Source: a virus (taxonomy: Duplodnaviria; Caudoviricetes). Taken from it: DNA of 24,965 nucleotides. Position 1 is the stretch's first letter. The number at the start of each line of letters is the position of its first letter. The translations under genes and the position numbers were made by a program. Where the stretch lies: the IMG/VR virus record IMGVR_UViG_3300025087_001226, positions 1 through 24,965 of that record; one strand, written 5' to 3'. Shown here piece by piece: positions 4,363-23,515 of this stretch. The notes beneath the pieces were generated by a model, which was not told the DNA's origin, did no database searches, and saw nothing but the letters and a program-made list of their open reading frames with translations.

Positions 4363-4407
4363 AATGAGTATCAATAAAAGAATATCAGTTATCTGGTTCG
4401 CTGTCAA
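4363..4407 (-). promoter_or_regulatory. Sigma70-type promoter plus conserved start-site motif, cassette copy B
   Basis: TTGACA (4407-4402, inside the last codons of the upstream gene), 17 nt, TATTCT (4384-4379) with extended TG, then TTTATTGATACTCATT. Confidence 0.8.
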
Positions 4408-7400
4408 TTAATGTCCAAATCGTGCTTGCGTCACTCGTATTTGTCCAAGTTGAACTTGAATCGGATGTGTCACTCCAAGGGGTTGTCCAATCCCCCATAT
4501 ATTCCCATCCGCCCAAATTGTGTCCCCTTACATAATCAGCGACAGCTAAAGAATCGGTTATACTTATACTTAAAAAATTGGTATTTACCGTTGTGTCCTC
4601 TGAAATCCCAACCGAATCATATAGATTAATATCATAGGATGCTTCACCAAGAACTTTCAACAATGTTACGCTTTCTGAAACGGCTATCCCGTCATAAACA
4701 CTTACGAATGTTGCGGGTACTCTGATAGATATGTGTTCGGAAACAACTATTGAATCGACATATTCACCTGAAGGAATATCAGAATCACTATCCTCACTTA
4801 CAGATATTCCATCATATAGACTGCTCTGGTCATCACTAATACCCACACTATCATAAACACTTACTTTCAATTCGGTTATCAAAACATCCTGCCCGATCCA
4901 TACGGGTGAACTGCTGAAGCTTCCATCACTTGTCCCTGCGGTATCTTTGACCGTAGTTTCACTCAAATCGTCAATCTTCCAGCGTCCAACCAATCCCGTA
5001 TCGGACGGGCTTCCTGTATAAACATCCCCAACCTCAGAAGATGTTAATACCCTGTTCCAAATCCGCACATCCCGTATTGCACCTTCAAAATAACCAGGAT
5101 CGGATTCATCCTCACAATGTCCAAATCTCAAATTAGCAGATGTGTTTTCCGAATTAATTCCGATAACCACAGTGGGTGCAGAAGTATATCCCGACCCGCC
5201 AGCAGTAAGTGTCAGTGAAGTAACAATTCCACCTGAGATGGTACAAGTAGCTGATGCTCCGCTTCCTCCACCACCGTATAAATTAACTTTTGGTGTATTT
5301 ACATAACTTGTTCCTGCATTCGTTAGTGTTATGGTATTTACAGCCCCCCCACTTATCGTACAGATTGCGGTTGCTTTTGTTCCCGTTGTCTGATGATGGA
5401 AGTGATAGGCATAAGCACCATCCCGATATATATAAGATTCATACATATCCATCGTACCAACCACATGGATCCATTCGCCTGCGGTCACTGCAGATGAAAT
5501 ATACGATCCCATTCCTAAGCCACCCTCTGAATTAAAAACATAAAGAGAAATCCTGCTTGGATAGGTACCTGTGTAATTTGCTATTCTAAATTCCCATTCT
5601 TCAGTGTTCGGACTTCCTGTTTGAGACTTACCAAGAAGATTGACATACTGATCTGAACCTGTATTTAAGGTATAGTTAAGAACATCTGGTCTCATCCAGA
5701 AAGAAACTGTAAGCGCACCCGTTGTAGAAACACTGTAAGCGTCATTGTCTGTGACTTCGACATAATCATCTACTCCGTCAAACACTAAAGCCTTGTAGTT
5801 TTCTTCAGATACCGTTATTGACTCATAGGTGTCGATCTCCTTCGGTAACTCCACCCCGACTTGCGTTACTGTTACATCTTCACTTATGGTGACGCTATCA
5901 AATACACTGAGAACATAGTTTGCCTGTAAAGCTGTAATACTCTCCGTTGCTGTAAGACTATCAAAAACTGAGGCAAGTAAGTTCTTTTCAATAACTATTA
6001 TATTTTCTGTGGCAGTTTGGATATCAAAGACGCTTACTTCAAGGAGGTTACTGCCTGCAGTAATACTTTCGCTTACATTTATTGAGTCATATACAGCTGA
6101 AATACTTAACGAAGTGACTTCAGATACCGCCTCTGCGGTTATATCTTCCGATACGGTTACCGAATCATATACATTAATATAAAAAGTGGTTTGCCCCGAC
6201 TCTTTAACCTCAACATTGACTTGGTTATATCTGCAATCGTAAGCCAAAGATGAGGTCATTGTTTGGCTTCCGGCAGTCCCTTTTAAAATATGATGACCTT
6301 CAGCATTTTGATAAGTCTCGGCTCCCTGAATCCAATCCTCAGTAGCTCCTTCGGTGGTCATTGTTGGAAGCGCCTCTGGTTCAATACAGGTAATTACCCA
6401 AGAATTATCCGATTGTGTGGTGATGGCAAGGGATGTGGTGGTTCCGGTTGTACTTACTTTTGAAGTATTATTCGGTAAATAAATATCTGTATTGTATAAA
6501 CTATAAATCCCTACCGCATAATAAGCACTTACCCCCGAAAGGACAACATTGTATGTACCGACTTCGGGTGCGATCAAACCCCAAATAGAAGCGTGTTCGT
6601 TAAATTGTCCGATCTGTTCAACTATCTTTGTTAGTGGTGTGGAATTGTAAGTTATACCGCTTGGTCCGCCACCCTGATAAGTTGCAAAAGAAACAAGGAG
6701 AAGCCTATTTTCGTGATCCGCAACCGTTATTCCATTGGTTGCTGTAGTCTCTGATGTAACAACGGTTCCGTCCAGTTCAATACCAAGCGTTGTACCCCCC
6801 GTTGTATCTTCCGTTACTGTAATCCCATCAAATACACTAAGTACAAGGTTGGTCTGTAAAACAGTTATATTTTCCGTTGTAGTTACTGAATCATAGACAC
6901 TTACATCCCAATATGCTGTTTCACCGCCCGTAGTTATATCTTCTGTTGTGGTGATACTGTCATAAACATTGACCTCTTTCGGTGTAGTACCCGTGGTGAT
7001 AACCTCCGTTGCTGTTAAGCTATCATAAACATCTACATTGTGGCTTGTTCGTAAAACTGTAACATCTTCTGAAATGTTCACCGCATCACCAACAATTGCA
7101 GTTGTACCCGACCCATCGGTATTAATATTGTCAAAAATTACGTTGCCTGGGCTTGTTTCCGACTGATAAGTGCCACCTTTTAAAACAACCGCCATTGCTG
7201 TAATGGCTACCGGTGTACCTACAGAAGCTCTATTTGTCCAACCCACCCCATCTGTTGAAGTGTCGTAGTAAAGTGTTCCGCTATCTTCCCGTATTCTCCA
7301 CCATCTATGAGTAGTATTATCGTAAGCAACTGAATCAACTGTTGTAGCACCCTCCCCATTAGGATAATACTGAAAGAAAAGCCCCGTACCTTCTTTGTTG

Positions 7401-9058
7401 ATCCTAATAACATCTCCATTGGTGGCTTCCAAAGATAAAAGTGCCTGAGCCCCCGTTGAATTTGATGGAGCTTCTACCACTTCTACATAAGCACATTTAT
7501 CATTAAAATCAAAAGCACTAGCTGACGAATAACCATCATAATTAGCCCCCACCGTAGCGTTGGCAAGTGTAATTTCTAGTTGTCCGTTTGCTTCTGAAAC
7601 TGTTACATCCGCATCACCCGTTGCTAAATTCCAAAGTCCTGTATTTCTGTCGTTATCGTCAAAGTTATCTTGTATCCCAACTACTGTGAACTCACCCAAT
7701 AATACTTGTGCTTCCACACTTTCACTCACCCCAATGGAATCAAAAACATCTATAAACTCTAATGGTACTTTGGAAGTGATATTTTCTGAGACATTTGCGG
7801 AGCTGTAAACCGATATATTGTGTTCTACCCGTAATATCGTCAAATCCTCTGATACATTTACTGAATCGAAAACATCAGGAATTTCTAAGTCAACAACGGG
7901 AGTAATTTCTTCTATTGTTATATCTTCGGAAACAGTAACACCGCTTTTGGGGATCGTTACAGCATAAACATAGAAAACAGTATCGTCAGCTGTGTAATTC
8001 CATCCCGTTGTGTAGTAGACAAGGTTTCCTGAATGTGATGGGGAAGATTCGTCATTAAAAATCTGAATGTTATTTGTGGGGTCGCCGTTCGTATATTCGA
8101 CAACAATACAATAATAACTGCTGTCCATCAGGTATTGGTTCGATCCCGTAAATGTAAAAGTTACAGCTTCACCATCAGCGCTGATCGTCCCAACATCAAC
8201 AGGGTCGGATGTGGCTAACAGGGCATCTCCGGCAGAACTTGTCCCGTATGTGCCTGAGTGGGAATATAACTTAGCATAGGCATTTCCCGTTGGTGATGTG
8301 TTTTTCTTTAAATAAAATACCGCCTGATAGATGTCTCCGGCAACTCCAGTAAATGACTGCCCAATCGCTAAATTAGTTCCATTTAGTTGTGCGTACACCT
8401 CACCATTTGTTGATGCGTAACTGTCAACCGAAAAAGAACTTGGAATGGAAAGAGGTGCGATCGCTCCAGACAAACTTGTCGCAATATCTTCAGCTACGGT
8501 AACTGAATCATAAACATTTATGTTATAACAACTTTGTTGAATGGTAATATTTTCGGAAACATTTACTGAATCAAATACATCTATTGATTTACTACTTGCA
8601 TCTGGTACCTCTAATTCAGCCCACGAAACAAACACATCAGATTGAGATGATGTTGGAATAGATACTGTTCCTCCTGAAGTAAACCTAATCCTAAGGTCGG
8701 TATAATTGGAAATTGCATCTGCTTCGGCTGGTGAAAGTGTCCACGAATAAGAAGTAGCTGTTCCCTTAACCAAATTAAAAGCGACATAAGTTGAAATAGT
8801 TGTTGAACCCTGAACAAGAATTACCGAAAGAGTGCGTTGGTGTGTATCGTTTTCTTGCCACGCCCTGAATCTAACAATATGGTCTGAACTTGACACTGGA
8901 TCGGTTACATCAGATAAACCCTTTTCAGCTGTTCCGTTTGCATTTTCTGCACCCTGAAGATAGTCTGCATCACTATAACTAACCTCGTCTATTGTGCTGT
9001 ATGCACCTGTCCACGATGTTGCTGATATGTCTGAATCTGGTCTTGCGTATTGTGTCAT
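4385..9058 (-). CDS. 1557-aa repetitive multi-domain virion protein (fiber/adhesin-like) with LamG and other beta-sandwich domains
   Basis: About 23 copies of a [IV]x[VL][YF]DS[VI]xVSE[DN]IT repeat in blocks separated by globular domains. There is a clear LamG domain near the C-terminus (ALVFDGVDDYVEV, TVSFWMRP, WIHVVGT, FEGAIRDVRIWNRVLT). The protein is very rich in Ser/Thr/Asp. Confidence 0.75.
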   Translation of the reverse strand: MTQYARPDSDISATSWTGAYSTIDEVSYSDADYLQGAENANGTAEKGLSDVTDPVSSSDHIVRFRAWQENDTHQRTLSVILVQGSTTISTYVAFNLVKGTATSYSWTLSPAEADAISNYTDLRIRFTSGGTVSIPTSSQSDVFVSWAELEVPDASSKSIDVFDSVNVSENITIQQSCYNINVYDSVTVAEDIATSLSGAIAPLSIPSSFSVDSYASTNGEVYAQLNGTNLAIGQSFTGVAGDIYQAVFYLKKNTSPTGNAYAKLYSHSGTYGTSSAGDALLATSDPVDVGTISADGEAVTFTFTGSNQYLMDSSYYCIVVEYTNGDPTNNIQIFNDESSPSHSGNLVYYTTGWNYTADDTVFYVYAVTIPKSGVTVSEDITIEEITPVVDLEIPDVFDSVNVSEDLTILRVEHNISVYSSANVSENITSKVPLEFIDVFDSIGVSESVEAQVLLGEFTVVGIQDNFDDNDRNTGLWNLATGDADVTVSEANGQLEITLANATVGANYDGYSSASAFDFNDKCAYVEVVEAPSNSTGAQALLSLEATNGDVIRINKEGTGLFFQYYPNGEGATTVDSVAYDNTTHRWWRIREDSGTLYYDTSTDGVGWTNRASVGTPVAITAMAVVLKGGTYQSETSPGNVIFDNINTDGSGTTAIVGDAVNISEDVTVLRTSHNVDVYDSLTATEVITTGTTPKEVNVYDSITTTEDITTGGETAYWDVSVYDSVTTTENITVLQTNLVLSVFDGITVTEDTTGGTTLGIELDGTVVTSETTATNGITVADHENRLLLVSFATYQGGGPSGITYNSTPLTKIVEQIGQFNEHASIWGLIAPEVGTYNVVLSGVSAYYAVGIYSLYNTDIYLPNNTSKVSTTGTTTSLAITTQSDNSWVITCIEPEALPTMTTEGATEDWIQGAETYQNAEGHHILKGTAGSQTMTSSLAYDCRYNQVNVEVKESGQTTFYINVYDSVTVSEDITAEAVSEVTSLSISAVYDSINVSESITAGSNLLEVSVFDIQTATENIIVIEKNLLASVFDSLTATESITALQANYVLSVFDSVTISEDVTVTQVGVELPKEIDTYESITVSEENYKALVFDGVDDYVEVTDNDAYSVSTTGALTVSFWMRPDVLNYTLNTGSDQYVNLLGKSQTGSPNTEEWEFRIANYTGTYPSRISLYVFNSEGGLGMGSYISSAVTAGEWIHVVGTMDMYESYIYRDGAYAYHFHHQTTGTKATAICTISGGAVNTITLTNAGTSYVNTPKVNLYGGGGSGASATCTISGGIVTSLTLTAGGSGYTSAPTVVIGINSENTSANLRFGHCEDESDPGYFEGAIRDVRIWNRVLTSSEVGDVYTGSPSDTGLVGRWKIDDLSETTVKDTAGTSDGSFSSSPVWIGQDVLITELKVSVYDSVGISDDQSSLYDGISVSEDSDSDIPSGEYVDSIVVSEHISIRVPATFVSVYDGIAVSESVTLLKVLGEASYDINLYDSVGISEDTTVNTNFLSISITDSLAVADYVRGHNLGGWEYMGDWTTPWSDTSDSSSTWTNTSDASTIWTLIDSEPDN

Positions 9059-9059
9059 A

Positions 9060-11885
9060 TTAACCTACTATTACAACTCCTTTCGCCGTTACCGATATTG
9101 ATAAAGGTTCAAATGTTGATGATGACGACTCTTCTATCGTTACACTTTCTGAAACATTACTGCTATCAGATGTTCCACCTGCGGTGTAAATTTCAAATCT
9201 CATATCCAAATTTCCCGAATCGGAGACCCACCAAACATCCGAACTGTAACCGATCGGCTTTCCGTTTGCGTAGACATTTGCATTTTGCCAACCGGGATCA
9301 CGGTAATCATCAGCATAGACATTTGTAGTTGTGTTCCAAGGTGCAAGGTAGAAACAATATTGTGTGGTAGGTGTGATCGCAAGTGGTGTGGGTAGTGAGT
9401 ACTTTGTTAGAGCGGTAGAAAGTTGTGAGTTAGGAATCGTCCAAGAATAAAGTTCGCTTCCGACAGTGTGTTCGGGAGCGAACTCTATATCTGCCGTATC
9501 GATATAAACCTTCATTCCCTGCGTTCCTGTCGAATACATACTGAAGGATATTGCCGTTAATATTGATCCCGTTGTTTTAAAACCCATCCCTCTGTATCTG
9601 ACTCCAGCCCATTCACCAAATCCTGCATAAGTATTTGCGAGAGGTTGGCTTTGATCTAATATGTCACCGCTTGAAACATAAAGAGTATTGGGTGGAATTG
9701 TTGTTACTACATCCGCTATTTCTATATCATTGTGGATATTAATAAGTTTTATGGTAGATGAACTCGTTACAACCGTGACACTTTCCGAAACACCAACATT
9801 GTCATACCACTCAGTTGTATCTAAATAAGTTTGAAGTACCGTACCCGCATAGTTGGGTTGGTAATCATAACCATCACTAGCATCGGCATCATACATTATT
9901 TGCTCAAGCCCGCCCGTAGCTCTCCAATAGTTAAAACCAATTAAGATACCGTCATTTGCAAGGCGTGTAAAAGCGTCATACATAGTCTTTAGATATTCTG
10001 TATGCTCCGTTTCCGTCCTTATTGGTGTAGATCTTCCCGAATCCAAAGACCAATAATCTCCCCATTCCTGTAAAAAGACTGGTTCGCTGTGCTTGTCGGA
10101 AACTTCACGAATATCTATTTCCATAGCCTCTGGTGATGCGTTGGTTTTAAACTGTTCGTGTCCAGAATATTCTAAGTTTCCAGAATAATCCGACAAAACC
10201 CTGACTGTCCCATCCGCTACGGTTGATGTCAGATGAAAATGATAAGTTCTGTCACAATCGGGGTTGTCCCAATAACAGGTAAAAGTATTCCAAGCGTTAT
10301 TTACTAATGCACCATTAGCCTTATTAACCTGATAACTATTTGTTTTGATCGAATAATCAGTGTGATCGGGGAGCTGTACGGGCTGGTTATATTCATTGTG
10401 GATCGTCATTGTCCAGTCGCCTGTTCCCTTATTCACAATAAAGACATCTATGGAGTCGTTTAATGCTATCTTTTCAGGTATAAATGAACATTTGTTGGAT
10501 GCTGTTTCACTTAACGTTAGTGGAACGGTATAGGTATCTGTTCCGGCTACATTTGTTTGGCTTGCATAATCTCCGCTTGAAAATCTTTCATTAAGTCCAA
10601 GAGACGATCCATAATGGTCGGTAGGTATTATGTGGGGATATTCAAACATCTCTCCACCCCTTCCCCCCTGAATTACACCTGTGAAGTTCTGCGAACTCAT
10701 ACCCGAATAAACAAATATCCCGTGATTTGCGAACATTCTTTCAATACAGTAAGCGAGTTCAACAAAGAAACTGTTATAACCCCCTTGGGTTCCTAATGAC
10801 TGGTGCGCATCCGCTTCGGGATAGGGTGCAATAATATCCCCATTCGCAAAAAGGGTGATGTTTGTTTCCAACCAGTTTAAACATTTGTATATCCAAGTGT
10901 CTGTATCTTGTATGGGGGTGATTCTCATATCATCAAATTCCCCATAGTCGCTCTCTCCTGAAAAACCGCAATATCCGTAGGTATAAGTTGTATTAGTTAT
11001 TTCTATATCCCAAGTTCCGGGTTCTGCCGATCCATCAGCCCAAGATTTGCCTTTGATTGCTGAACCGTTGCATTGTAGCTTTAGCCAGTACCAATTTCCT
11101 TCAGTATAGGTTTTTGAAACACTGCCAAGCGACTCAAGTCCGGGTCTTTCAATTCTCAACTCTCCCGTTCTCATCTGAAGTCCGTAACCTGGATAATTTG
11201 CGTCTGTTGAGGCACGGCATATAATTTGCTGATTGCCGACCTTTTTAACCTTAGCAACCATTGTCATATTGTTAAGATATATTTGTCCGTATTCCCTATA
11301 GGCTTCAAAGTCCTGTAAAAATAAAACAGTTCTTCTCCAACCGTCAGATGAGGGTCCGTGGAGTACCCCACTTGAAATAGACCAATCATTACCCGTCTGG
11401 TGTGCCGTATAGAAGTTTGCAATAGTATTAGAAGAAAAAGTATCCTCTATCGTGTCTGCAAAATATGTATATCTGTTGCCGTTTCTCCTGTCATAAACAG
11501 GGGTCATATAATAAAGACCACCCGCTTCAAAAGTACAATCAGTTCCCCTCCACAAAACACCCTTACCTTCGGTGTGGATTTTGTCGCAAAACTGTGCTGT
11601 GTAAGTAGCTGGTTCACTATCAAAAGCATAACCTCTATCTGCAACCGCCTCGGCATCGGTATTCATAGGGACAGATACGCCTATATGGGTTATGTTGAAG
11701 TTACTTACAATGGACTCAATGGCATTATCCGACTGTGTGGCTGAAATATTAGTATCAAGGGTATCTTTGGTCATACCCATAATATCAATTCCTCTAAATG
11801 GCATACCCGCCATACCCCTTCCACCGATAAGCCAATCGTTATTAAACTCCGAAACCGCTACGCTGTCATATAGGTTTATATCCAT
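9060..11885 (-). CDS. 941-aa virion protein with putative clan-A glycoside hydrolase TIM barrel, inserted lectin-like domains and DSVxVSE repeats
   Basis: Barrel-like motifs FRGIDIM, THIGVSVP, IHTEGKGVLWRG, DIIAPYPE, PVFLQEWG, LIGFNYW. ConA-like insert (GYGLQM...WYWLKLQCNGSAIKGKSW...GYCGF...FDDMRI). Starts with MDINLYDSVAVSE. Confidence 0.6.
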   Translation of the reverse strand: MDINLYDSVAVSEFNNDWLIGGRGMAGMPFRGIDIMGMTKDTLDTNISATQSDNAIESIVSNFNITHIGVSVPMNTDAEAVADRGYAFDSEPATYTAQFCDKIHTEGKGVLWRGTDCTFEAGGLYYMTPVYDRRNGNRYTYFADTIEDTFSSNTIANFYTAHQTGNDWSISSGVLHGPSSDGWRRTVLFLQDFEAYREYGQIYLNNMTMVAKVKKVGNQQIICRASTDANYPGYGLQMRTGELRIERPGLESLGSVSKTYTEGNWYWLKLQCNGSAIKGKSWADGSAEPGTWDIEITNTTYTYGYCGFSGESDYGEFDDMRITPIQDTDTWIYKCLNWLETNITLFANGDIIAPYPEADAHQSLGTQGGYNSFFVELAYCIERMFANHGIFVYSGMSSQNFTGVIQGGRGGEMFEYPHIIPTDHYGSSLGLNERFSSGDYASQTNVAGTDTYTVPLTLSETASNKCSFIPEKIALNDSIDVFIVNKGTGDWTMTIHNEYNQPVQLPDHTDYSIKTNSYQVNKANGALVNNAWNTFTCYWDNPDCDRTYHFHLTSTVADGTVRVLSDYSGNLEYSGHEQFKTNASPEAMEIDIREVSDKHSEPVFLQEWGDYWSLDSGRSTPIRTETEHTEYLKTMYDAFTRLANDGILIGFNYWRATGGLEQIMYDADASDGYDYQPNYAGTVLQTYLDTTEWYDNVGVSESVTVVTSSSTIKLINIHNDIEIADVVTTIPPNTLYVSSGDILDQSQPLANTYAGFGEWAGVRYRGMGFKTTGSILTAISFSMYSTGTQGMKVYIDTADIEFAPEHTVGSELYSWTIPNSQLSTALTKYSLPTPLAITPTTQYCFYLAPWNTTTNVYADDYRDPGWQNANVYANGKPIGYSSDVWWVSDSGNLDMRFEIYTAGGTSDSSNVSESVTIEESSSSTFEPLSISVTAKGVVIVG

Positions 11886-11890
11886 AAGCC

Positions 11891-11927
11891 AAAAAAAAGT
11901 GACGGTCTTTATGCTAGACCGCCACTT
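11891..11927 (-). terminator. Intrinsic terminator (no promoter partner)
   Basis: Minus strand GTGGCGGTCT-AGCATAA-AGACCGTCAC followed by T8. The upstream TAA stop is in the loop, and the next ATG is 5 nt after the U-tract. Confidence 0.8.
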
Positions 11928-12118
11928 GCACCAATGCCGTCATTGACATTGATCCCCAATGCAGGCGGACCTCTGTCCTCAATTTTCTTCAAAGTAATAA
12001 TAAGCGGTTTGTCTTCATTAGACCTGAACCACTTTAATATAGCTTTCCTAATAATCTTTACCGCTTTTGAAAATCCATCTGCGGTAAAAATAGTGTCATT
12101 TACGTTTATTTCTAACAT
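11909..12118 (-). CDS. Small hypothetical protein carrying two INVNDxI motifs
   Basis: 69 aa, tightly packed in the operon. EINVNDTI and GINVNDGI resemble the repeat of the two downstream large proteins. Confidence 0.65.
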   Translation of the reverse strand: MLEINVNDTIFTADGFSKAVKIIRKAILKWFRSNEDKPLIITLKKIEDRGPPALGINVNDGIGASGGLA

Positions 12119-12121
12119 AGT

Positions 12122-12286
12122 TCAATAATTAGTTTTACTACCCCTTTCAACAACTGTCAAAAATACCCTTTTTCCAACCTTTATTTTATCTCCGATTTTA
12201 GGGTTATATTTTAAATCTTTTATTACAACCCCATTGACTTCAACCGCACCCTGCTTAATTAGTCTTTTTGCCTTGCTTATGCTCAT
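12122..12286 (-). CDS. Stand-alone S4 RNA-binding domain protein
   Basis: SISKAKRLIKQGAVEVNGVVIKD..YNPKIGDKIKVGKR matches the S4 domain consensus (SxSxARRLIxQGxVxVNG...GDxIxVGK) and resembles the TyrRS C-terminal S4. I prefer ATG 12286 over the track start at 12307. Confidence 0.8.
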   Translation of the reverse strand: MSISKAKRLIKQGAVEVNGVVIKDLKYNPKIGDKIKVGKRVFLTVVERGSKTNY

Positions 12287-13088
12287 TTTTTTCAGGTATA
12301 AATTCACTTGGAATATTTAAAGGATATTGTGTCCCGTTCTGGTCAATGTGTTTTGTAAAGATATTTGTATCAACTAAAAATGGGTATTTCATCTTTTGAT
12401 ACTTATTCCACCCCGCCTTTTCAAAATACTTTTCAGTTATAACTCTTTGGCACCAAGCAAGGTCTGACGTTCCCGTTGAGGTTATCATTGTTCCCTTCAT
12501 CGGATCGTAATAAACCTTTGAAGGTTCGGCAAACACCCTTCTTGTGACCTGATCGCCGATACGGTATTCAGGACTGTCGTTCCACATAGCTCTAATAATG
12601 CTCATGTGTACCAAAAGACAGCCCGTAGGAACACCATCCGCCCAAACCTTTTCCCCCATCTTCCACTTGTCAAAATATGAGTTTCCAATACCTCTGTAAA
12701 GTAGCGGTTCGGGGGGGTTACTCTTTGTAAAGTAAAGTCCCGATACAACAGGTACGGTCTTCTTTCTCATATATTCATTAAGTCTCCAAAAAGTATTGGG
12801 TGGAAGAACATTGTCCTGCTCAACCAAAAACAACCATTCAGCATCTTTCTCGATAGCAGACCTGACTATCATATTCTGTGCATCGGATACAATATAACGA
12901 AGTGGGGCAACCGTAGGGATCCACTGCATCACATCCGCCATACTCCAGTTGGTAGGAATGAGCTGACCATATCTTGCCAAAACCCACTCAATCCTCACAA
13001 GACCCGTGACGGGCGTTCCGACAATGACATTCTGTTTCCAAACCCCAGTATTTTCTATTATTTTACTTTCAAAACTTGTATATTTCAT
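12255..13088 (-). CDS. GT-A fold (GT2-like) glycosyltransferase
   Basis: IVGTP, 'AQNMIVRSAIEKDAEWLFLVEQDNVLPP' (EQD in place of DxD), VVSGLYF, GCLLV, 'SDLAWC', 'LVDTNIFTKH'. Confidence 0.75.
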   Translation of the reverse strand: MKYTSFESKIIENTGVWKQNVIVGTPVTGLVRIEWVLARYGQLIPTNWSMADVMQWIPTVAPLRYIVSDAQNMIVRSAIEKDAEWLFLVEQDNVLPPNTFWRLNEYMRKKTVPVVSGLYFTKSNPPEPLLYRGIGNSYFDKWKMGEKVWADGVPTGCLLVHMSIIRAMWNDSPEYRIGDQVTRRVFAEPSKVYYDPMKGTMITSTGTSDLAWCQRVITEKYFEKAGWNKYQKMKYPFLVDTNIFTKHIDQNGTQYPLNIPSEFIPEKNEHKQGKKTN

Positions 13089-13696
13089 TTTTCTATAATT
13101 GCGTATAAAAGGTCGTTTCTGGCTACTGAATTTTTATGGGGTGGATTAACTGTACCCACTTTCGGTAGTTTTACACCCTTTGGAATGGTATACATTTCAC
13201 CCTTGTAAAAACCGGCTCCGTTAAGAATGTAATTTAAAAATTGTTGTGTGAACGGGCAACGGTGAACCTCACCTTCAGAATGTCCGTATTGATTCCCGTA
13301 AATTACTTCAGCCACATCGTAATACTTCTTTGGATCGAAACTCCCCTCTAGTCTCATATCAATCCAATCTTTAGCACATCCGTCAAACTGGTTGGTCATT
13401 ATTATTAGTTTTGCGCCCTTCTTCATTACTCTATATATCTCTTTTAGGTATTCAACCATCTGATACATAGGAAAATGCTCGATGGTATTCATCATCTCCA
13501 CATAGTCTGCGTAATTGTCGGGAAAAGGCATATTCTTTATATCCGCCTTGACCCACTTCGCACCTTTTTCAATTTTTGCGTATTTGTATGGTCCTTCTTT
13601 CTTCAACAACTTCTCAAAGTCAATAAAGTTATCGACATTGATAAACCCCTTTCGAAGCCAGATTCCACATCCCAAGTTCAAGTTATTTTTTGCCAT
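13085..13696 (-). CDS. Class I SAM-dependent methyltransferase
   Basis: LNLGCG motif I, GFINVD, DIKNMPFPDNYAD, IEHF, EIYRVMKKGAKL. Confidence 0.85.
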   Translation of the reverse strand: MAKNNLNLGCGIWLRKGFINVDNFIDFEKLLKKEGPYKYAKIEKGAKWVKADIKNMPFPDNYADYVEMMNTIEHFPMYQMVEYLKEIYRVMKKGAKLIIMTNQFDGCAKDWIDMRLEGSFDPKKYYDVAEVIYGNQYGHSEGEVHRCPFTQQFLNYILNGAGFYKGEMYTIPKGVKLPKVGTVNPPHKNSVARNDLLYAIIEK

Positions 13697-14219
13697 ATAT
13701 TTGATAAGGATGGAACGACTTATCGTCCAACCTTTTTTCTAAAACAACCTCCAGATTACCGTTCTGATACCAGGAACTCTCCACTATCTTCCAAGGCTTT
13801 GGTCGGTAATTCTCGTACATTTTCCCACCGGATAGTTGCCCGAACGGATCAAAGTATTCCCAAGTATATTCATTACAGGGGTTACAGTGTGTGGGGTCTT
13901 GAAAATAGCCTACCGAACCGGCATAAGGAGTTGCTATCATAAATTGTCCCCTTGGTTTTAATATTCTCCACGCCTCATCCATAAAGTTAATAAATACGCC
14001 TTTGTGGGGATCGATATGTTCTACAAGCTGAGAGGCAACCAATAAGTCAGCGCAGTTATCGGGGAATGGCCAGGGGAAAACTTCAAGGTCGTGTACAACA
14101 TCCACTCCGGGGAAATCCTGTAAATCAACATTTATAAAACCATATTGGGGTGTATCTCCACAACCCAAGTTGATATTTATATGCTCTCTGCCTTTAAGCA
14201 ACTCTTTAATCTTCTTCAT
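13683..14219 (-). CDS. Class I SAM-dependent methyltransferase
   Basis: INLGCG, GFINVD, HDLEVFPWPFPDN, LVEHI, EAWRILKPRG, DPTH. Confidence 0.85.
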   Translation of the reverse strand: MKKIKELLKGREHININLGCGDTPQYGFINVDLQDFPGVDVVHDLEVFPWPFPDNCADLLVASQLVEHIDPHKGVFINFMDEAWRILKPRGQFMIATPYAGSVGYFQDPTHCNPCNEYTWEYFDPFGQLSGGKMYENYRPKPWKIVESSWYQNGNLEVVLEKRLDDKSFHPYQIYGKK

Positions 14220-14226
14220 AAAACTG

Positions 14227-14281
14227 ATGAACTTTTGGGTAACGTTGCCGTAAATCCCAAAAGCTCATAAGTGGCAACGTT
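14227..14281 (-). promoter_or_regulatory. Interleaved inverted repeats (pseudoknot or two-state RNA element) upstream of methyltransferase gene
   Basis: On the minus strand, AACGTTGCC (14281-14273) pairs with GGCAACGTT (14249-14241), and ATGAGCTTTTGGG (14268-14256) pairs with CCCAAAAGTTCAT (14239-14227). The order is A-B-A'-B'. Confidence 0.55.
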
Positions 14282-14288
14282 TTTAAAG

Positions 14289-14783
14289 TTAAGCTGTTGC
14301 AAAGCGTAATTGATAGGTTACGTTCACGCTCTGATTCGTCTGCAATTGGCTTGTAGCATAGGTGTTTCCACAAAGGATACTTCCCAACCCCGTTGACGAT
14401 ACTGCAAATACACCGATATTTTGAATCGTGCGGTTTGCTGTAACAACATTTGAGGCTAAAGTTCCAACCATCTGTAAAGTCTTGGATGAAACTACGGAAG
14501 GCGTCATTGTGAACCTACAGGCTGCTGCATCTCCCAGTTCTGCATCAAGAGATGTTGCTGTCGCTCCTGGAGCCGTACCTGTTCCAAGCGCAAAGTAAGA
14601 TACTTGGCTTGATCCTGATATTGCTGCTGCTGGTTCAATTATGTAGTGTTGGAAACCCAAATTGGTTACAAGGTTTTTGCACCATCCGGAATCACCGACA
14701 ACTTTTTTCTTTCCGTCAGCGTGGTCAACAACTTTAAGTCTGTAAAATCCTGCTACGTTAACTGCTTCTATTGCTTTCTTCAT
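14289..14783 (-). CDS. Putative virion structural protein (beta-rich, tail-collar/decoration-like)
   Basis: 'KNLVTNLG', 'YFALGTG...TSLDAEL', 'IQNIGVF', 'VNVTYQLRF' pattern is common in phage structural proteins. Start moved to ATG 14783 because the track's GTG at 14792 lies inside the GGGGGTGA RBS. Confidence 0.65.
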   Translation of the reverse strand: MKKAIEAVNVAGFYRLKVVDHADGKKKVVGDSGWCKNLVTNLGFQHYIIEPAAAISGSSQVSYFALGTGTAPGATATSLDAELGDAAACRFTMTPSVVSSKTLQMVGTLASNVVTANRTIQNIGVFAVSSTGLGSILCGNTYATSQLQTNQSVNVTYQLRFATA

Positions 14784-14806
14784 TAGTTTCACCCCCTTCC
14801 GCCATT

Positions 14807-14833
14807 AAAAAAGGAACGGTTTTATCCGTCCCT
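14807..14833 (-). terminator. Intrinsic terminator, cassette copy C
   Basis: Minus strand GGGACGG-ATAAAA-CCGTTCC followed by T6. Confidence 0.75.
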
Positions 14834-14836
14834 AAA

Positions 14837-14880
14837 AATGAGAACAATTAAAGATTATCAGCTAATTTAATAGTTGTCAA
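14837..14880 (-). promoter_or_regulatory. Sigma70-type promoter plus conserved start-site motif, cassette copy C
   Basis: TTGACA (14880-14875, contains the upstream TGA stop), 17 nt, TAATCT (14857-14852) with extended TG, then TTAATTGTTCTCATT. Confidence 0.8.
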
Positions 14881-15998
14881 TTTAGGACGGTCTCCCTATA
14901 AGCATTAACCCATTTGTCAGCCCATACTTTTGCGTCTCTGTTGGCAAGTACATAACTGTAAGCATTTCCCCCGATCTCCAGACGTTTGTCAGGCATTAGA
15001 AGAAGTGTTTTAAGTGCGTCATAGAATTCTTTTTCAGTTCTATAACGCATCGAGTTGCTGTCTGTTATATTCTCGGAATAAGGAAGAATGTTTTTGACTA
15101 CCGAAGGCACGCCCATAGCTGACATTTCATACCACTTTATAGAACTTTTATACTGATTGAATTTCAAATCATCTAATGGAATTATCGCAATATCCAAAGC
15201 CATACACATACTTCTGAATGAATGACCCTCAAATGGCACCCACGAATGGCTTTCAAGCAAATGTTTGTTATCTTCGTCTATTATTCCCGGGAATCCGTGT
15301 CCGAAATAAACAAATTTAAATTGGAATTCCCGCATAAGTTTATTTAAAGGCTCTCTGATTGAATACAGGTCCTCATAGTGACTTGATCCACCGCTCCACC
15401 CAACTCTTAACTGCTGGTTTGGCATTAGGTCTAATTTCCACCAATTCTCGAAGTTTATGCAGTTTGGTAGTACAGCTACATTTTTATTGTACTGGCTTGC
15501 GTATTCTTTTAACCTATTAGTTGTTACAGTAACCAAGTTTGCATTTTTTAAACCCCATATATGGTCTGCTAATCGTTTCTTATTCTTCTCGATACTAAAC
15601 CCCCCCACTCCGTCCTTCCATAAGTCTTTACCATTGTGTTTAACTTCTTTAGTGCCGTATTCTTCGTAGTGATTGGAATAAGGACTTATTAGTTCCGTGT
15701 TATCGTCAATATCTAACGCCCACGATTTGCCGATGTATTCAGGCATTGAAAGGATTTGTTTTATTCCTATTTCTCCGCCAGGTCTCGTTACTAAAATATT
15801 TGCCATTTGCATTGCTTTAGATACTTCCACCATATCATCCTTCTGCTGGTCAATAACGTGTGTATCGGAATTTGTAAACCTTTGTATCATCTCAAAAGGT
15901 TGCCTTATCCTATACCAACCGCATCCACCGGAATCCACAGGGGTAGACATGATGCGTATCGGTTTTATTTCAATTTTAGACATATATGTAATTCCCAT
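14877..15998 (-). CDS. GT-B fold (GT4-like) glycosyltransferase
   Basis: GCGWYRI..P, DIDDN, VTVTT..L, VLPNCI, VGWSGGSSH..DL, DIAIIPL...FNQYKSSIKWYE...MGVP. The start may be ATG 15983. Confidence 0.85.
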   Translation of the reverse strand: MGITYMSKIEIKPIRIMSTPVDSGGCGWYRIRQPFEMIQRFTNSDTHVIDQQKDDMVEVSKAMQMANILVTRPGGEIGIKQILSMPEYIGKSWALDIDDNTELISPYSNHYEEYGTKEVKHNGKDLWKDGVGGFSIEKNKKRLADHIWGLKNANLVTVTTNRLKEYASQYNKNVAVLPNCINFENWWKLDLMPNQQLRVGWSGGSSHYEDLYSIREPLNKLMREFQFKFVYFGHGFPGIIDEDNKHLLESHSWVPFEGHSFRSMCMALDIAIIPLDDLKFNQYKSSIKWYEMSAMGVPSVVKNILPYSENITDSNSMRYRTEKEFYDALKTLLLMPDKRLEIGGNAYSYVLANRDAKVWADKWVNAYRETVLN

Positions 15999-16396
15999 TC
16001 ATATCGATCCCTTTCAACTTTTGTAATCTCAAATTCCTTCTTTGAATAAAAATGTCCTGCCGGACTATCTTTCGTGAAGTAAAAAAAGAAAACGGGTCCT
16101 GGTATAAACTTAACGTGTGTCGGATCAATAAAAGCAAACTCACTCGGATAAGTAGGTACCCGTATATCAATCAATCCGCTTGTTTTTAATACATCACCCA
16201 CCTTATTAAAAAAAGCTACTGTGTCAGGTATGTGTTCGATAACATGATGACAAAAGATAATATCGTACTTCTTGGGAAATTTATAAGTCATAAAATCCCC
16301 TACATACTTTTGACCGAAGTCTATTAAGTCGATTCCATCCGCTTCCTTAATTTGTCTGTCTTTCGGTCCGCAACCGATTTCTAATATATCAGCCAT
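15965..16396 (-). CDS. Class I SAM-dependent methyltransferase (minimal)
   Basis: ILEIGCG, YDIIFCHHVIEHI, LKTSG.I.IRVP, DPTH. Confidence 0.85.
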   Translation of the reverse strand: MADILEIGCGPKDRQIKEADGIDLIDFGQKYVGDFMTYKFPKKYDIIFCHHVIEHIPDTVAFFNKVGDVLKTSGLIDIRVPTYPSEFAFIDPTHVKFIPGPVFFFYFTKDSPAGHFYSKKEFEITKVERDRYEWELHICLKLK

Positions 16397-17285
16397 ATAT
16401 AACCTCTAATTGTTTTTCCAGCGCAAGTTTCGGATCACCACCATCAAGATAATCCTGAACAAAACATCTTCTAAATTCCGCCATACTTTCGGGATGTTCC
16501 AGTTCATAATCAATAACTTCAAGAAGTTTTTTCAATCTAACTATCTTACAGGCTGTTGATACCTGCGCAAAAAAATCCTCTTTTGTATAAACTTTCCCCA
16601 GAAGTTCTTTCGGGTGCCACAGATCAACTGATATATAAGGAATGTCCATCCAGTAGCAAAGTGCTGCAAAAGTTCCTTCACCAATTCCAACAACAACGTC
16701 AGCGTGTTTTAAAGCCTCATAACACAGCTTTATGTGATTGTTCTTGTCCCGCTCCGACATTATTGGGTTCGGATATTCAAAAGGATCGTGTTCCCCCAAT
16801 ATTATTTTTGAATAAACATAAGCCTTGTCATAAGTTTTTAACATTTTGGCAACCAATATATTTTCGGGGATATCGGTATGCCAATGTCTAGGAGCAAATA
16901 AAACTCTTTTTTCCTCGTGTGGCACTCTCTTACCCATACTGCTAAATATGGTCGTACCTGTAATAGTTACCACATCTTCGGGGATATTTGCATCTATAAG
17001 CCAATCTTTTGTCTCTTGTCCCCAAGCCATAAATACATCACCTATTAAAGGTTTGGAAAGCGGTGGAATATAGTCATTGATACTTAAAAGTCCGTGTTCG
17101 GCTACAACAACCTTTTTCCCCATCTCTTTGGCCTGCCGGCACATGGTTGATAAAACCCCAACAGCATCCTGCCAAACAACCAAGGTATCGGCTTGTTGCC
17201 AATCGGATACATAGTCACCACGATCTCTAACTGCTTTATAAAGTTCATCTAATATATTGTTAAAGTTATATATTGCGACCTTCAT
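16389..17285 (-). CDS. GT-B fold surface-carbohydrate biosynthesis protein (glycosyl- or glycerophosphotransferase-like)
   Basis: VVVAEHG, FMAWG..TKDWL...VTITG, RVLFAP, 'ALKHADVVVG..GTFAAL...DIPYI'. Lies in a sugar-enzyme cluster; the exact activity is uncertain. Confidence 0.6.
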   Translation of the reverse strand: MKVAIYNFNNILDELYKAVRDRGDYVSDWQQADTLVVWQDAVGVLSTMCRQAKEMGKKVVVAEHGLLSINDYIPPLSKPLIGDVFMAWGQETKDWLIDANIPEDVVTITGTTIFSSMGKRVPHEEKRVLFAPRHWHTDIPENILVAKMLKTYDKAYVYSKIILGEHDPFEYPNPIMSERDKNNHIKLCYEALKHADVVVGIGEGTFAALCYWMDIPYISVDLWHPKELLGKVYTKEDFFAQVSTACKIVRLKKLLEVIDYELEHPESMAEFRRCFVQDYLDGGDPKLALEKQLEVIYG

Positions 17286-18070
17286 ATATTTTGTCTTTTT
17301 AGTTTTGGTTCTTTTGGTGTTATCTTTCCATCAAGGTAATAATCAACAATGTTGTTATTAAAGGTCTGGTAAATCACCCTTAAATGTTTGGGTTGGAAGT
17401 CCGACTCTAAAAAGTTCTTACCAGCTTCAGGTTTTTGCTTGAATAATTCCCACCCATCCATTTTAAATAGTGCTATGGCCTCCTTGGTTGATTCTAAGAC
17501 GGCTTTGCAGGCTACATCGTGTATCCCATCACCCCTTTCAAGTTGTGGTACAACCTGATGAATTATGTCTCCGGCATCAGGGGAATCCTGAATGAAATGA
17601 AATGTAGTACCCGCCCAATTAGGTTCTAAGAAGTAAAAAGGCCAGAATAAGGTTGCAGCACCCCTATATCTAGGTGATAGACCCAAGTGAAGGTTAATTG
17701 TGCGAAGCGGTAGTGCGTAAACAAGTGGGGGTCGGATCATACCCGTCCCGAATACAATAGCCATATCAGGTTTGACTTTCTTAACAAAATTGACCGCATC
17801 AATATCATTTAAGGTATCTTTATCAACTTTTAAAATGGGTATATCGGGTGGTTTTTGTTCACCGAAGTATTTTTTTTCGGCATCGGCTCTTTCTTCAAAA
17901 TGCTGTCGCCAGTTCGCACTATCAACGGGTGATAATCCTTCAGGCTCTTTAATAGAATCACCCCTTAACTGCATAATCCCCCCCACCATAGGAAAAGTCT
18001 CGACTATCTTATTGGCGTAATATAGGTGTCTTGGCTGGTTTCCCCCCAACCATAGGATTCTCTCACTCAT
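17282..18070 (-). CDS. Formyltransferase (N10-formyl-THF dependent; likely sugar N-formyltransferase)
   Basis: KPDMAIVFG, INLHLGLSPRYRGA, GTTFH and DAGDII are the formyltransferase N-domain catalytic motifs. Confidence 0.85.
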   Translation of the reverse strand: MSERILWLGGNQPRHLYYANKIVETFPMVGGIMQLRGDSIKEPEGLSPVDSANWRQHFEERADAEKKYFGEQKPPDIPILKVDKDTLNDIDAVNFVKKVKPDMAIVFGTGMIRPPLVYALPLRTINLHLGLSPRYRGAATLFWPFYFLEPNWAGTTFHFIQDSPDAGDIIHQVVPQLERGDGIHDVACKAVLESTKEAIALFKMDGWELFKQKPEAGKNFLESDFQPKHLRVIYQTFNNNIVDYYLDGKITPKEPKLKRQNI

Positions 18071-18948
18071 ATCATCTTTAAAAATTCTTCCTTTGTAAGT
18101 CTTTTGGCGTTTTCAGAGGTGTATTCAAATATCCTGTCCGTATAAGTAACACCAAGTAATTCGGGTTCAATTACATAGTGATATTGGTATTCTTTTGTGT
18201 GGATGGATTCGTCTTTACTTATTAAGGATTCGTGTAATTTCTCCCCCGGTCGCATACCTGTCACATTAAGTTTTATATCAGGCGCCAGAGCTTTAAACAT
18301 ATCAACTATTCTCATTGAAGGAATTTTGGGTATAAACACCTCTCCGCCCTTCATTTCTTCTAAGGCTCTGAAAATAAGATTGCAAGCCTGATCCAAAGTC
18401 AGCCAGTATCTCGTCATTCTTTCGTCCGTAACATTTAATTCCTTTGGTTTATCTTTTAAAATTGTTTCAATAATTGAACCTCTTGATCCGATAACATTCC
18501 CATATCTTACTGAAGCGAATTTACACTCAGAGTTCTGATTTGCGGCTGTCATTAACTTCTCACCGCATAGTTTTGTAGCACCGTATAAATTAACAGGGTG
18601 ACAACCCTTGTCGGTTGAAGTTAAGATACATTTTTTGACATTGTTCACTTTACAGGCATTAATTACATTCATTGTTCCGATAACATTAGTCATTATCGTT
18701 TCTTCGGGTTGTTCTTCACCTACGGGGACGTGTTTCATAGCTGCAGTATGAATAACTACATCTATTCCTCTGAAGGCTTTAATTAATACATCTTTGTCCC
18801 TGACATCACCAACGATATAATGGGCTTTGACTTCAGACATCATCTTCCGTTGCTTGTACTCGTCTCTTGATAGAATGGTTACATCCTCAAGTCTTTTAGC
18901 AAGATGTGTTCCAAGCGATCCCGTCCCACCTGAAATTAATACTCTCAC
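18067..18948 (-). CDS. pseB: UDP-GlcNAc 4,6-dehydratase (PseB/FlaA1-like SDR)
   Basis: GGTGSLG, SRDE, HTAAMKHVP, STDK, YGATK, RYGNVIGSRGS, TDERMTR, GMRPGEKLHE. The start is likely GTG 18948 (GTGA overlap with the upstream stop, GGAGGG RBS) rather than 18993. Confidence 0.85.
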   Translation of the reverse strand: MRVLISGGTGSLGTHLAKRLEDVTILSRDEYKQRKMMSEVKAHYIVGDVRDKDVLIKAFRGIDVVIHTAAMKHVPVGEEQPEETIMTNVIGTMNVINACKVNNVKKCILTSTDKGCHPVNLYGATKLCGEKLMTAANQNSECKFASVRYGNVIGSRGSIIETILKDKPKELNVTDERMTRYWLTLDQACNLIFRALEEMKGGEVFIPKIPSMRIVDMFKALAPDIKLNVTGMRPGEKLHESLISKDESIHTKEYQYHYVIEPELLGVTYTDRIFEYTSENAKRLTKEEFLKMI

Positions 18949-19109
18949 GCTATTCCCTCCCCGTGGTATTCTTCTTTTTTCTTTAAAGGACACTTCTGTA
19001 TCGTTCCAACAAATAACTCAGGTGATTTACCTGCAATTTTCTTTAAAACAACATCCTCTCTTATTTGTTCGCACTTTGTGTTTTTACAGTCTTTACAAGT
19101 TTCTTTCAT
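18945..19109 (-). CDS. Small Cys-rich hypothetical protein (possible Zn binding)
   Basis: MKETCKDCKNTKC...QKCPL, 54 aa, with ATGA and GTGA overlaps with both neighbours. Confidence 0.6.
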   Translation of the reverse strand: MKETCKDCKNTKCEQIREDVVLKKIAGKSPELFVGTIQKCPLKKKEEYHGEGIA

Positions 19110-21205: not shown

Positions 21206-21221
21206 TCAAATCACCCCCTTT

Positions 21222-21337
21222 CTGTATGTTCTACATTTTTTACGTTGTATGCCAACGACAAAACATAGATTGGTCTAGGACGGCGCTGAATCCTAGTAGG
21301 GAATGTTGAGCCTGCCCGAATCAACACCCCATACTAA
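21222..21337 (-). other. Candidate structured RNA leader upstream of scaffold gene
   Basis: Consecutive stems on the minus strand: GGGGTGTTGA/TCAACATTCC, CTAGGA/TCCTAG, and TATGTTTT/AGAACATA enclosing CGTTG/CAACG. They end next to the RBS. Confidence 0.5.
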
Positions 21338-21340
21338 AAT

Positions 21341-23488: not shown

Positions 23489-23515
23489 AAAAAAAGAAGC
23501 CCCGTAAGGCTTCCC
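23489..23515 (-). terminator. Intrinsic terminator, cassette copy E
   Basis: Minus strand GAAGCCT-TACG-GGGCTTC followed by T7; the next ATG is 11 nt downstream. Confidence 0.85.

Follow-up and report, generated by a model that had tools for sequence, protein, structure and literature searches.

A tyrosyl-tRNA synthetase-type S4 mini-gene in the late operon of a P22/SU10-type phage

The S4 mini-gene and its surroundings

The window, i.e., the whole 24,965-nt stretch of DNA that was analyzed, is a minus-strand phage late region of the P22/SU10 type according to gene calls and Pfam/PHROGs matches. Its genes encode a terminase, a P22-type portal, an SU10-type capsid protein, a block of sugar and methyl transferases, repeat proteins, and a head-tail adaptor. 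The transferase block (13085 to 18993, minus strand) is a dense run of methyltransferase, glycosyltransferase, formyltransferase, and nucleotide-sugar epimerase genes between the capsid and adaptor genes, and its content differs from relative to relative; we take it, as a guess, to serve virion glycosylation. No tRNA genes were found within the window.

On the minus strand, positions 12122 to 12286 form an open 54-aa frame running from ATG to TGA; the plus strand of the same segment is interrupted by stops. The frame starts 32 nt inside a 277-aa upstream gene (12255 to 13088, minus strand), the last 32 nt of which overlap the S4 start in another frame. Directly downstream lies a 69-aa gene (11909 to 12118, minus strand), in the same frame as S4 and with its ATG 3 nt past the S4 stop, which ends in a terminator-like hairpin plus U-run (11897 to 11927, minus strand) also present in the S4-less relatives G002 and G003. 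Next come genes for a 941-aa and a 1,557-aa protein (4385 to 11885, minus strand) with LamG domains and dispersed repeats at a spacing of 21 residues. The initial annotation had placed the S4 gene between a glycosyltransferase and these repeat-protein genes. On the downstream side the 69-aa gene intervenes, and on the upstream side the glycosyltransferase label is weak: the 277-aa product had no match in Pfam or PHROGs, and the leads suggesting a GT2-like enzyme are the occurrence of GT2 families on 11 to 33% of members in similar clusters and a below-cut-off match in one of seven homologues.

The sequencing runs found to contain the region come from groundwater and soil metagenomes, with no RNA dataset among them. 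A contig from one run (X1), which may be the source sample, was identical to the window over positions 12020 to 12700, with 0 differences and 0 gaps, and thus reproduced both the A7 run at the S4 start and the TGA stop. Several ways in which the small frame might belong to a larger product were considered and rejected. A frameshift fusion at A7 with the GT2-like gene was discarded given the gap-free contig and the separate genes, joined by an ATGA overlap, in the related phage G001. Read-through into the 69-aa gene would be in frame in the window and out of frame in G001. As to TGA recoding, 14 of the 25 genes end in TGA and the 941-aa and 1,557-aa frames are open under translation table 11. 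A search for longer, fused forms of the S4 protein returned 2 of 50 candidates, both tyrosyl-tRNA synthetases (TyrRS), which is weak evidence. The same runs also yielded a phage resembling G001 together with a mosaic variant, the latter as one low-depth contig in run X3. Longer run contigs match the window only over the 50 bases at 12152 to 12201, with seven differences; this match reads as the coding end of a further S4-like gene, carried by an organism or phage that occurs alongside.

The 54-aa product matched the Pfam S4 family (PF01479) with an E value of 4.8e-10 and 39.5 bits against a gathering cut-off of 22.8, bearing out the family assignment of the initial annotation. The match covers profile positions 15 to 48 of 48, positions 1 to 14 being absent. 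The frame stays open for just 10 more codons upstream of the ATG, and starting at an upstream GTG (61 aa) adds no S4 profile positions, so the protein is an S4 domain from which helix 1 is missing. The earlier description of the product as essentially just an S4 domain was therefore right as to family but missed that the domain is shortened. The alpha-L motif, described in the available part of PMC4275181 as two helices plus an L-shaped loop and counted there as an RNA-binding motif, is not present as a two-helix hairpin with L-loop in the 54-aa protein.

Consistent with this, an AlphaFold model built from a 31-sequence alignment predicts one helix (residues 3 to 11) and three strands, although its quality is only moderate (pLDDT 70, pTM 0.45). 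Foldseek gave no match to the model at an E value of ≤0.001, the best 50 rows being mostly ribosome, TyrRS, or pseudouridine-synthase entries. The protein is basic (pI 10.3; 13 K/R versus 4 D/E). It had no match in PHROGs and none at an E value of ≤0.01 in a tblastn search of cultured phages, where P0010 found one weak match and P0079 three unannotated ones.

Relationship to TyrRS tails and distribution among phages

The 54-aa protein shares 60% identity over 45 aa with the extreme C terminus of a 380-aa TyrRS. A profile seeded with the five first matches retrieved 658 proteins at an E value of ≤0.001. Among 76 longer proteins picked from the best 150 of these, the best model was TIGR00234 (tyrS, tyrosine--tRNA ligase) in 68, the remaining 8 scoring best elsewhere or not at all. 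In GTDB, 50 of 53 loci were TyrRS C termini, 47 of them with both HIGH- and KMSKS-like motifs, bearing in mind that these matches, mostly in Acidobacteriota, reflect one exact seed peptide. When PDB sequences were compared with the profile, TyrRS 6byq came first (1.8e-7) with ribosomal protein uS4 close behind (4.4e-7); TyrRS chains extended to profile positions 48 to 49, whereas uS4 chains ended at 40. Identities point the same way, with 25 to 27 of 41 to 46 residues for the best TyrRS tails versus 13 to 14 of 36 for two uS4-type proteins. The uS4 model PRK05327 gave 15 bits on the ORF against a cut-off of 116, the protein falling well short of the approximately 200 aa of a full-length uS4, and no Hsp15 or RqcP family match was obtained in NCBIfam at an E value of ≤0.1. 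The Pfam TyrRS C-terminal domain (PF22421) itself scored below cut-off (22.5 versus 27 bits; positions 33 to 79 of 83), and a quick tree of 92 S4 cores, with 2 of 89 inner branches strongly supported, mixed phage, short, and TyrRS rows. By sequence comparison, then, the nearest cellular relatives of the ORF are TyrRS C termini rather than ribosomal S4 or Hsp15/RqcP, in keeping with the TyrRS-type, tRNA-related affinity that the initial annotation had listed as a side option.

The TyrRS catalytic domain, with its HIGH and KMSKS motifs, is absent, the 54-aa frame being bounded by stops and the upstream gene unrelated. The gene's likely origin is capture of the S4 domain at the C terminus of a bacterial TyrRS. 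A different origin, in which a phage attP-type sequence replaces the 3′ end of a host tyrS gene, was rejected: in G001, the integrase and the tRNA-Lys gene beside it lie approximately 19 kb off, and the S4 genes share only 69% of bases. That tRNA-Lys gene is the only tRNA gene of the complete phage G001, which has no tRNA-Tyr, a point against a tRNA-related role.

G001 (42.9 kb, with direct terminal repeats) carries a syntenic S4 copy encoding a 46-aa protein with 76% identity. Over 45 codons, the window and G001 genes gave a pN of 0.15 and a pS of 0.91, values similar to those of neighboring genes and derived from this one pair, with saturated synonymous sites. Purifying selection, as measured in comparison with a syntenic copy in a complete relative, identifies S4 as a maintained gene. 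The same Met is also the first residue of P0002, P0004, and P0007. In G001, S4 shares an ATGA with the end of the upstream gene, and its own stop in turn overlaps the start of the next gene. No Shine-Dalgarno-like run precedes the S4 ATG, and the overlapping starts and stops suggest that S4 is likely made together with the late genes through translational coupling. Elsewhere in G001 (L001, 8457 to 9108), a head-closure-like gene is divided between a 72-aa and a 463-aa frame; ahead of it lies a 147-aa HNH-like gene, labeled as such by eye and with no Pfam match.

The S4 gene is optional and patchy among relatives. A partial scan gave 72 metagenome loci at which the upstream gene occurs; 45 were informative (upstream gene complete and at least 300 bases downstream) and one carried S4, encoding the same protein as G001. 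In others (L003, L008/L031, L032, L034, and L099), a 69-aa-family gene directly follows the upstream gene, without S4. Whole-record searches found S4 in one of five close records and in none of eight more distant ones, two of them complete (8 of 25 loci searched). The most informative S4-less relative is G003, a circular 42.2-kb genome with a 126-nt terminal repeat and an upstream gene closest to that of the window (74 to 76%). No S4 gene was detected in it by Pfam, and an unfiltered search with our own profile gave a best E value of 0.3. CheckV rates G003 39% complete, yet it also rates G001, with its terminal repeats, at 48%.

Five other phage contigs carry TyrRS-type S4 genes. The gene encodes 116 aa and follows the portal in L002; in L104 it encodes 56 aa and follows a glycosyl/methyltransferase; in L106, with the same neighbor family as L104, it has an in-frame stop; and in L105, where it precedes terminase-like genes, the 63-aa product is C-terminally short. 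The last two indicate that decay occurs in this family. In L107 (572 to 1274), a 129-aa S4 gene stands in tandem with a gene resembling the C terminus of cysteinyl-tRNA synthetase (CysRS; E = 1.8e-4) and a tRNA-Met gene, the tandem lying upstream of a large gene that by eye is ribonucleotide reductase-like. A fifth pattern match, L103, abuts the edge of its contig and resembles the end of a host tyrS gene. Roughly 30 short proteins in the databases have the shortened form as well, although some of them may be pieces of TyrRS cut off where a contig ends; the truncation point recurs in separate proteins of 72 to 76% identity. The top ESM Atlas cluster (61 aa, 91 members, 77% viral among those recorded, score 0.86) serves as a lead only. 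The metagenome protein P0009 (287 aa) has three S4-like repeats. No paper on phage TyrRS-type S4 mini-proteins turned up in a literature search of incomplete coverage.

Candidate roles and the late-region RNA elements

Our preferred reading, to which we assign a probability of roughly 0.5, is that the gene is a conserved but optional phage accessory, a captured TyrRS tail that is co-translated with its neighbors and likely acts as a low-specificity binder of tRNA or structured RNA. Under this scheme, the C-terminal S4 domain of a bacterial TyrRS would have been captured with loss of helix 1, and the 54-mer would be produced along with the late proteins by translational coupling. It would then attach to tRNA, or to structured RNA of other kinds, without much specificity, as its basic composition and the behavior of isolated TyrRS tails suggest, and may serve as a tRNA/RNA-stabilizing helper in late protein synthesis. 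In the portion of PMC4275181 available, TyrRS tails are described as contacting the variable and anticodon arms of tRNA, and isolated mitochondrial TyrRS tails as binding many RNAs non-specifically. The main weakness of RNA binding as the function is the missing helix together with the lack of a tRNA gene in the window. In a bolder extension, which we regard as speculative and rather improbable, phages of unrelated hosts would repeatedly have clipped the tRNA-gripping tails of synthetases (TyrRS here, CysRS in L107), the free mini-proteins binding, shielding, or supplying host tRNA in late translation, possibly against tRNA-cutting defenses, and the 54-mer would represent a minimal, one-helix version.

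A maintained protein might alternatively use the S4 fold for a morphogenesis task unrelated to RNA, as a virion accessory or as a partner of the neighboring sugar-modifying enzymes. Location speaks for this role: in five of the seven phage contigs with S4 (window, G001, L104, L106, and L002) the gene lies inside a structural-gene block, in the first four of them after glycosyltransferase-like genes, and in L105 the terminase-like genes follow shortly. Helix 1 is also missing, as is the arginine matching YlmH R195. However, viral collections presumably favor contigs with structural genes, which would bias the sample of locations, and the S4 gene of L107 adjoins a tRNA gene instead. Most relatives use the same gene block with no S4 in it, and the protein has stayed strongly basic and keeps the TyrRS-type C-terminal strand motif. 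We consider a morphogenesis role unlikely.

Equally doubtful is that the gene is a captured fragment with hardly any effect, one that comes and goes in a variable part of the late operon. The single occurrence among 45 informative loci would fit such a fragment, as would the broken (L106) and short (L105) homologues, the incomplete domain, and the lack of a Shine-Dalgarno-like run ahead of the ATG. Yet 76% of residues are kept between the window and G001 in the face of saturated synonymous sites, the same truncation point is found in separate proteins 72 to 76% identical, and in both phages S4 is tightly coupled to its neighbors through its start and stop.

The initial annotation had favored the S4 protein as a candidate trans-acting factor, e.g., an antiterminator or regulator binding the leader/terminator cassettes of the late region. 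The cassettes considered here are hairpin-U-run elements identified in the sequence, possibly not those originally meant. Terminator-like matches numbered 25 in the window, overlapping calls included, versus 11.7 ± 3.7 in shuffles, and they correspond to seven distinct sites. At 23515, 19550, 19494, 14833, 4356, and 2038 (all minus strand), a promoter-like sequence, often with a CTCA motif, is followed by a GC-rich hairpin and U-run, often with an ATG just downstream. The cassettes are syntenic in G001, G002, and G003, and a variant with a TGATATAAT upstream element occurs in G004.

Two structured leaders accompany them. Two interleaved stems of 8 and 13 bp, forming either a pseudoknot or alternative hairpins, lie between the 167-aa and methyltransferase genes (14217 to 14284, minus strand). 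In seven phage sequences, which were picked by the stem-1 motif, 97% of cells pair and 12 of the 21 pairs show changes in both partners, a level of covariation reached in 0 of 500 shuffles. This leader may be of more interest than the S4 gene. The other is a structured 135-nt leader between the portal and scaffold-like genes (21206 to 21340, minus strand; about −56 kcal/mol with flanks), comprising a variable long hairpin and a 3′ half conserved in G001 and G002; by motif search, it is found in the window, G001, and partial G002 but not in G003. Rfam gave 0 matches over the window at an E value of ≤1, the two-stem leader included.

Both S4-bearing phages have hairpin-U-run sites in their late regions, and a non-specific binder could touch them. 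Nevertheless, circular S4-less G003 keeps six such sites on the gene strand, four with CTCA upstream, among them those that follow the capsid and 69-aa genes and those that precede the 167-aa and adaptor genes, as well as the two-stem leader before the methyltransferase gene. The cassettes thus do not require the S4 gene, and their occurrence in a relative without it, one of the refuting conditions set in the initial annotation itself, contradicts the trans-acting proposal for a required factor. The available parts of G002 and G004 likewise have hairpin-U-run sites, with S4 not found there. Several cassettes also have their own promoter-like sequence upstream, and they look like signals read by the host. 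The supporting analogy with uS4 in rRNA antitermination is weak since the protein is not uS4 but a 54-aa TyrRS-type fragment and since, in the E. coli assays as covered by the accessible text of PMC6614801, the effect of SuhB on intrinsic termination is largely independent of S4. A role as cassette regulator, which could at most be a modulating one, is very unlikely, and because close relatives keep the hairpins and one leader without S4, the gene is likely an optional RNA-binding helper instead.

Least probable of all is an S4 protein acting on split 50S subunits in the manner of Hsp15, RqcP, or YlmH (the first two named as an option in the initial annotation), to which a stand-alone S4 fold and Foldseek ranks of 14 for YlmH (E = 0.08) and 42 for RqcP (E = 0.19), among many S4 proteins, would be compatible: RqcP Arg2 and Arg16 (YlmH R182 and R195) are reported as essential, with both helices contacting H69 of 23S rRNA, in the available part of 10.1101/2024.03.03.583159, whereas here the Arg2 position falls upstream of the ORF start and R195 aligns with Ile3 (a weak alignment, E = 0.2), in addition to the NCBIfam result above.

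Significance and comparison with known systems

To our knowledge, most of the phage genes described as acting on translation encode tRNAs or complete ribosomal proteins. If the preferred reading is true, a free, one-helix TyrRS tail that recurs and is retained by selection would extend this set with a minimal tool for binding tRNA/RNA; its 54 residues make synthesis and testing cheap. For the window itself the practical result is negative: S4 is not to be regarded as the partner that acts in trans on the terminator cassettes, and these deserve study in their own right.

The closest parallel is the TyrRS C-terminal S4-like domain (PF22421, TIGR00234; PDB 6BYQ and 1H3E), with which the 54-mer shares helix 2, the beta strands, the terminal VGK-x-x-F strand, and a basic character. 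Unlike that domain, it is free-standing in a phage late operon, with no catalytic or helical domain and no first helix. A stand-alone S4 protein of similar size is already annotated in a phage: B2ZXQ3 of Ralstonia phage phiRSL1 (57 aa), whose name, "RNA-binding S4 domain-containing protein," is an annotation. It was the top BFVD structural match (E = 0.039, probability 1.00, TM 0.63) but shares 24% identity with the 54-mer. By sequence, the one-helix TyrRS-type form is thus a variant of a known domain. RqcP, Hsp15, and YlmH have the S4 fold in common with it, RqcP being a single-domain S4 protein of 86 aa, but the 54-mer is without helix 1 and both essential arginines, and its sequence affinity is to TyrRS. 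With uS4 of the rrn antitermination complex it shares the S4 motif, as seen in the PDB matches, at about a quarter of the length and with fewer identities than to TyrRS tails. Phage-encoded bS21, found near structural genes according to the accessible part of PMC9723584, is also a small translation-related gene in a morphogenesis region; it is, however, a whole ribosomal protein with expression data, whereas the 54-mer is a synthetase fragment known from its sequence.
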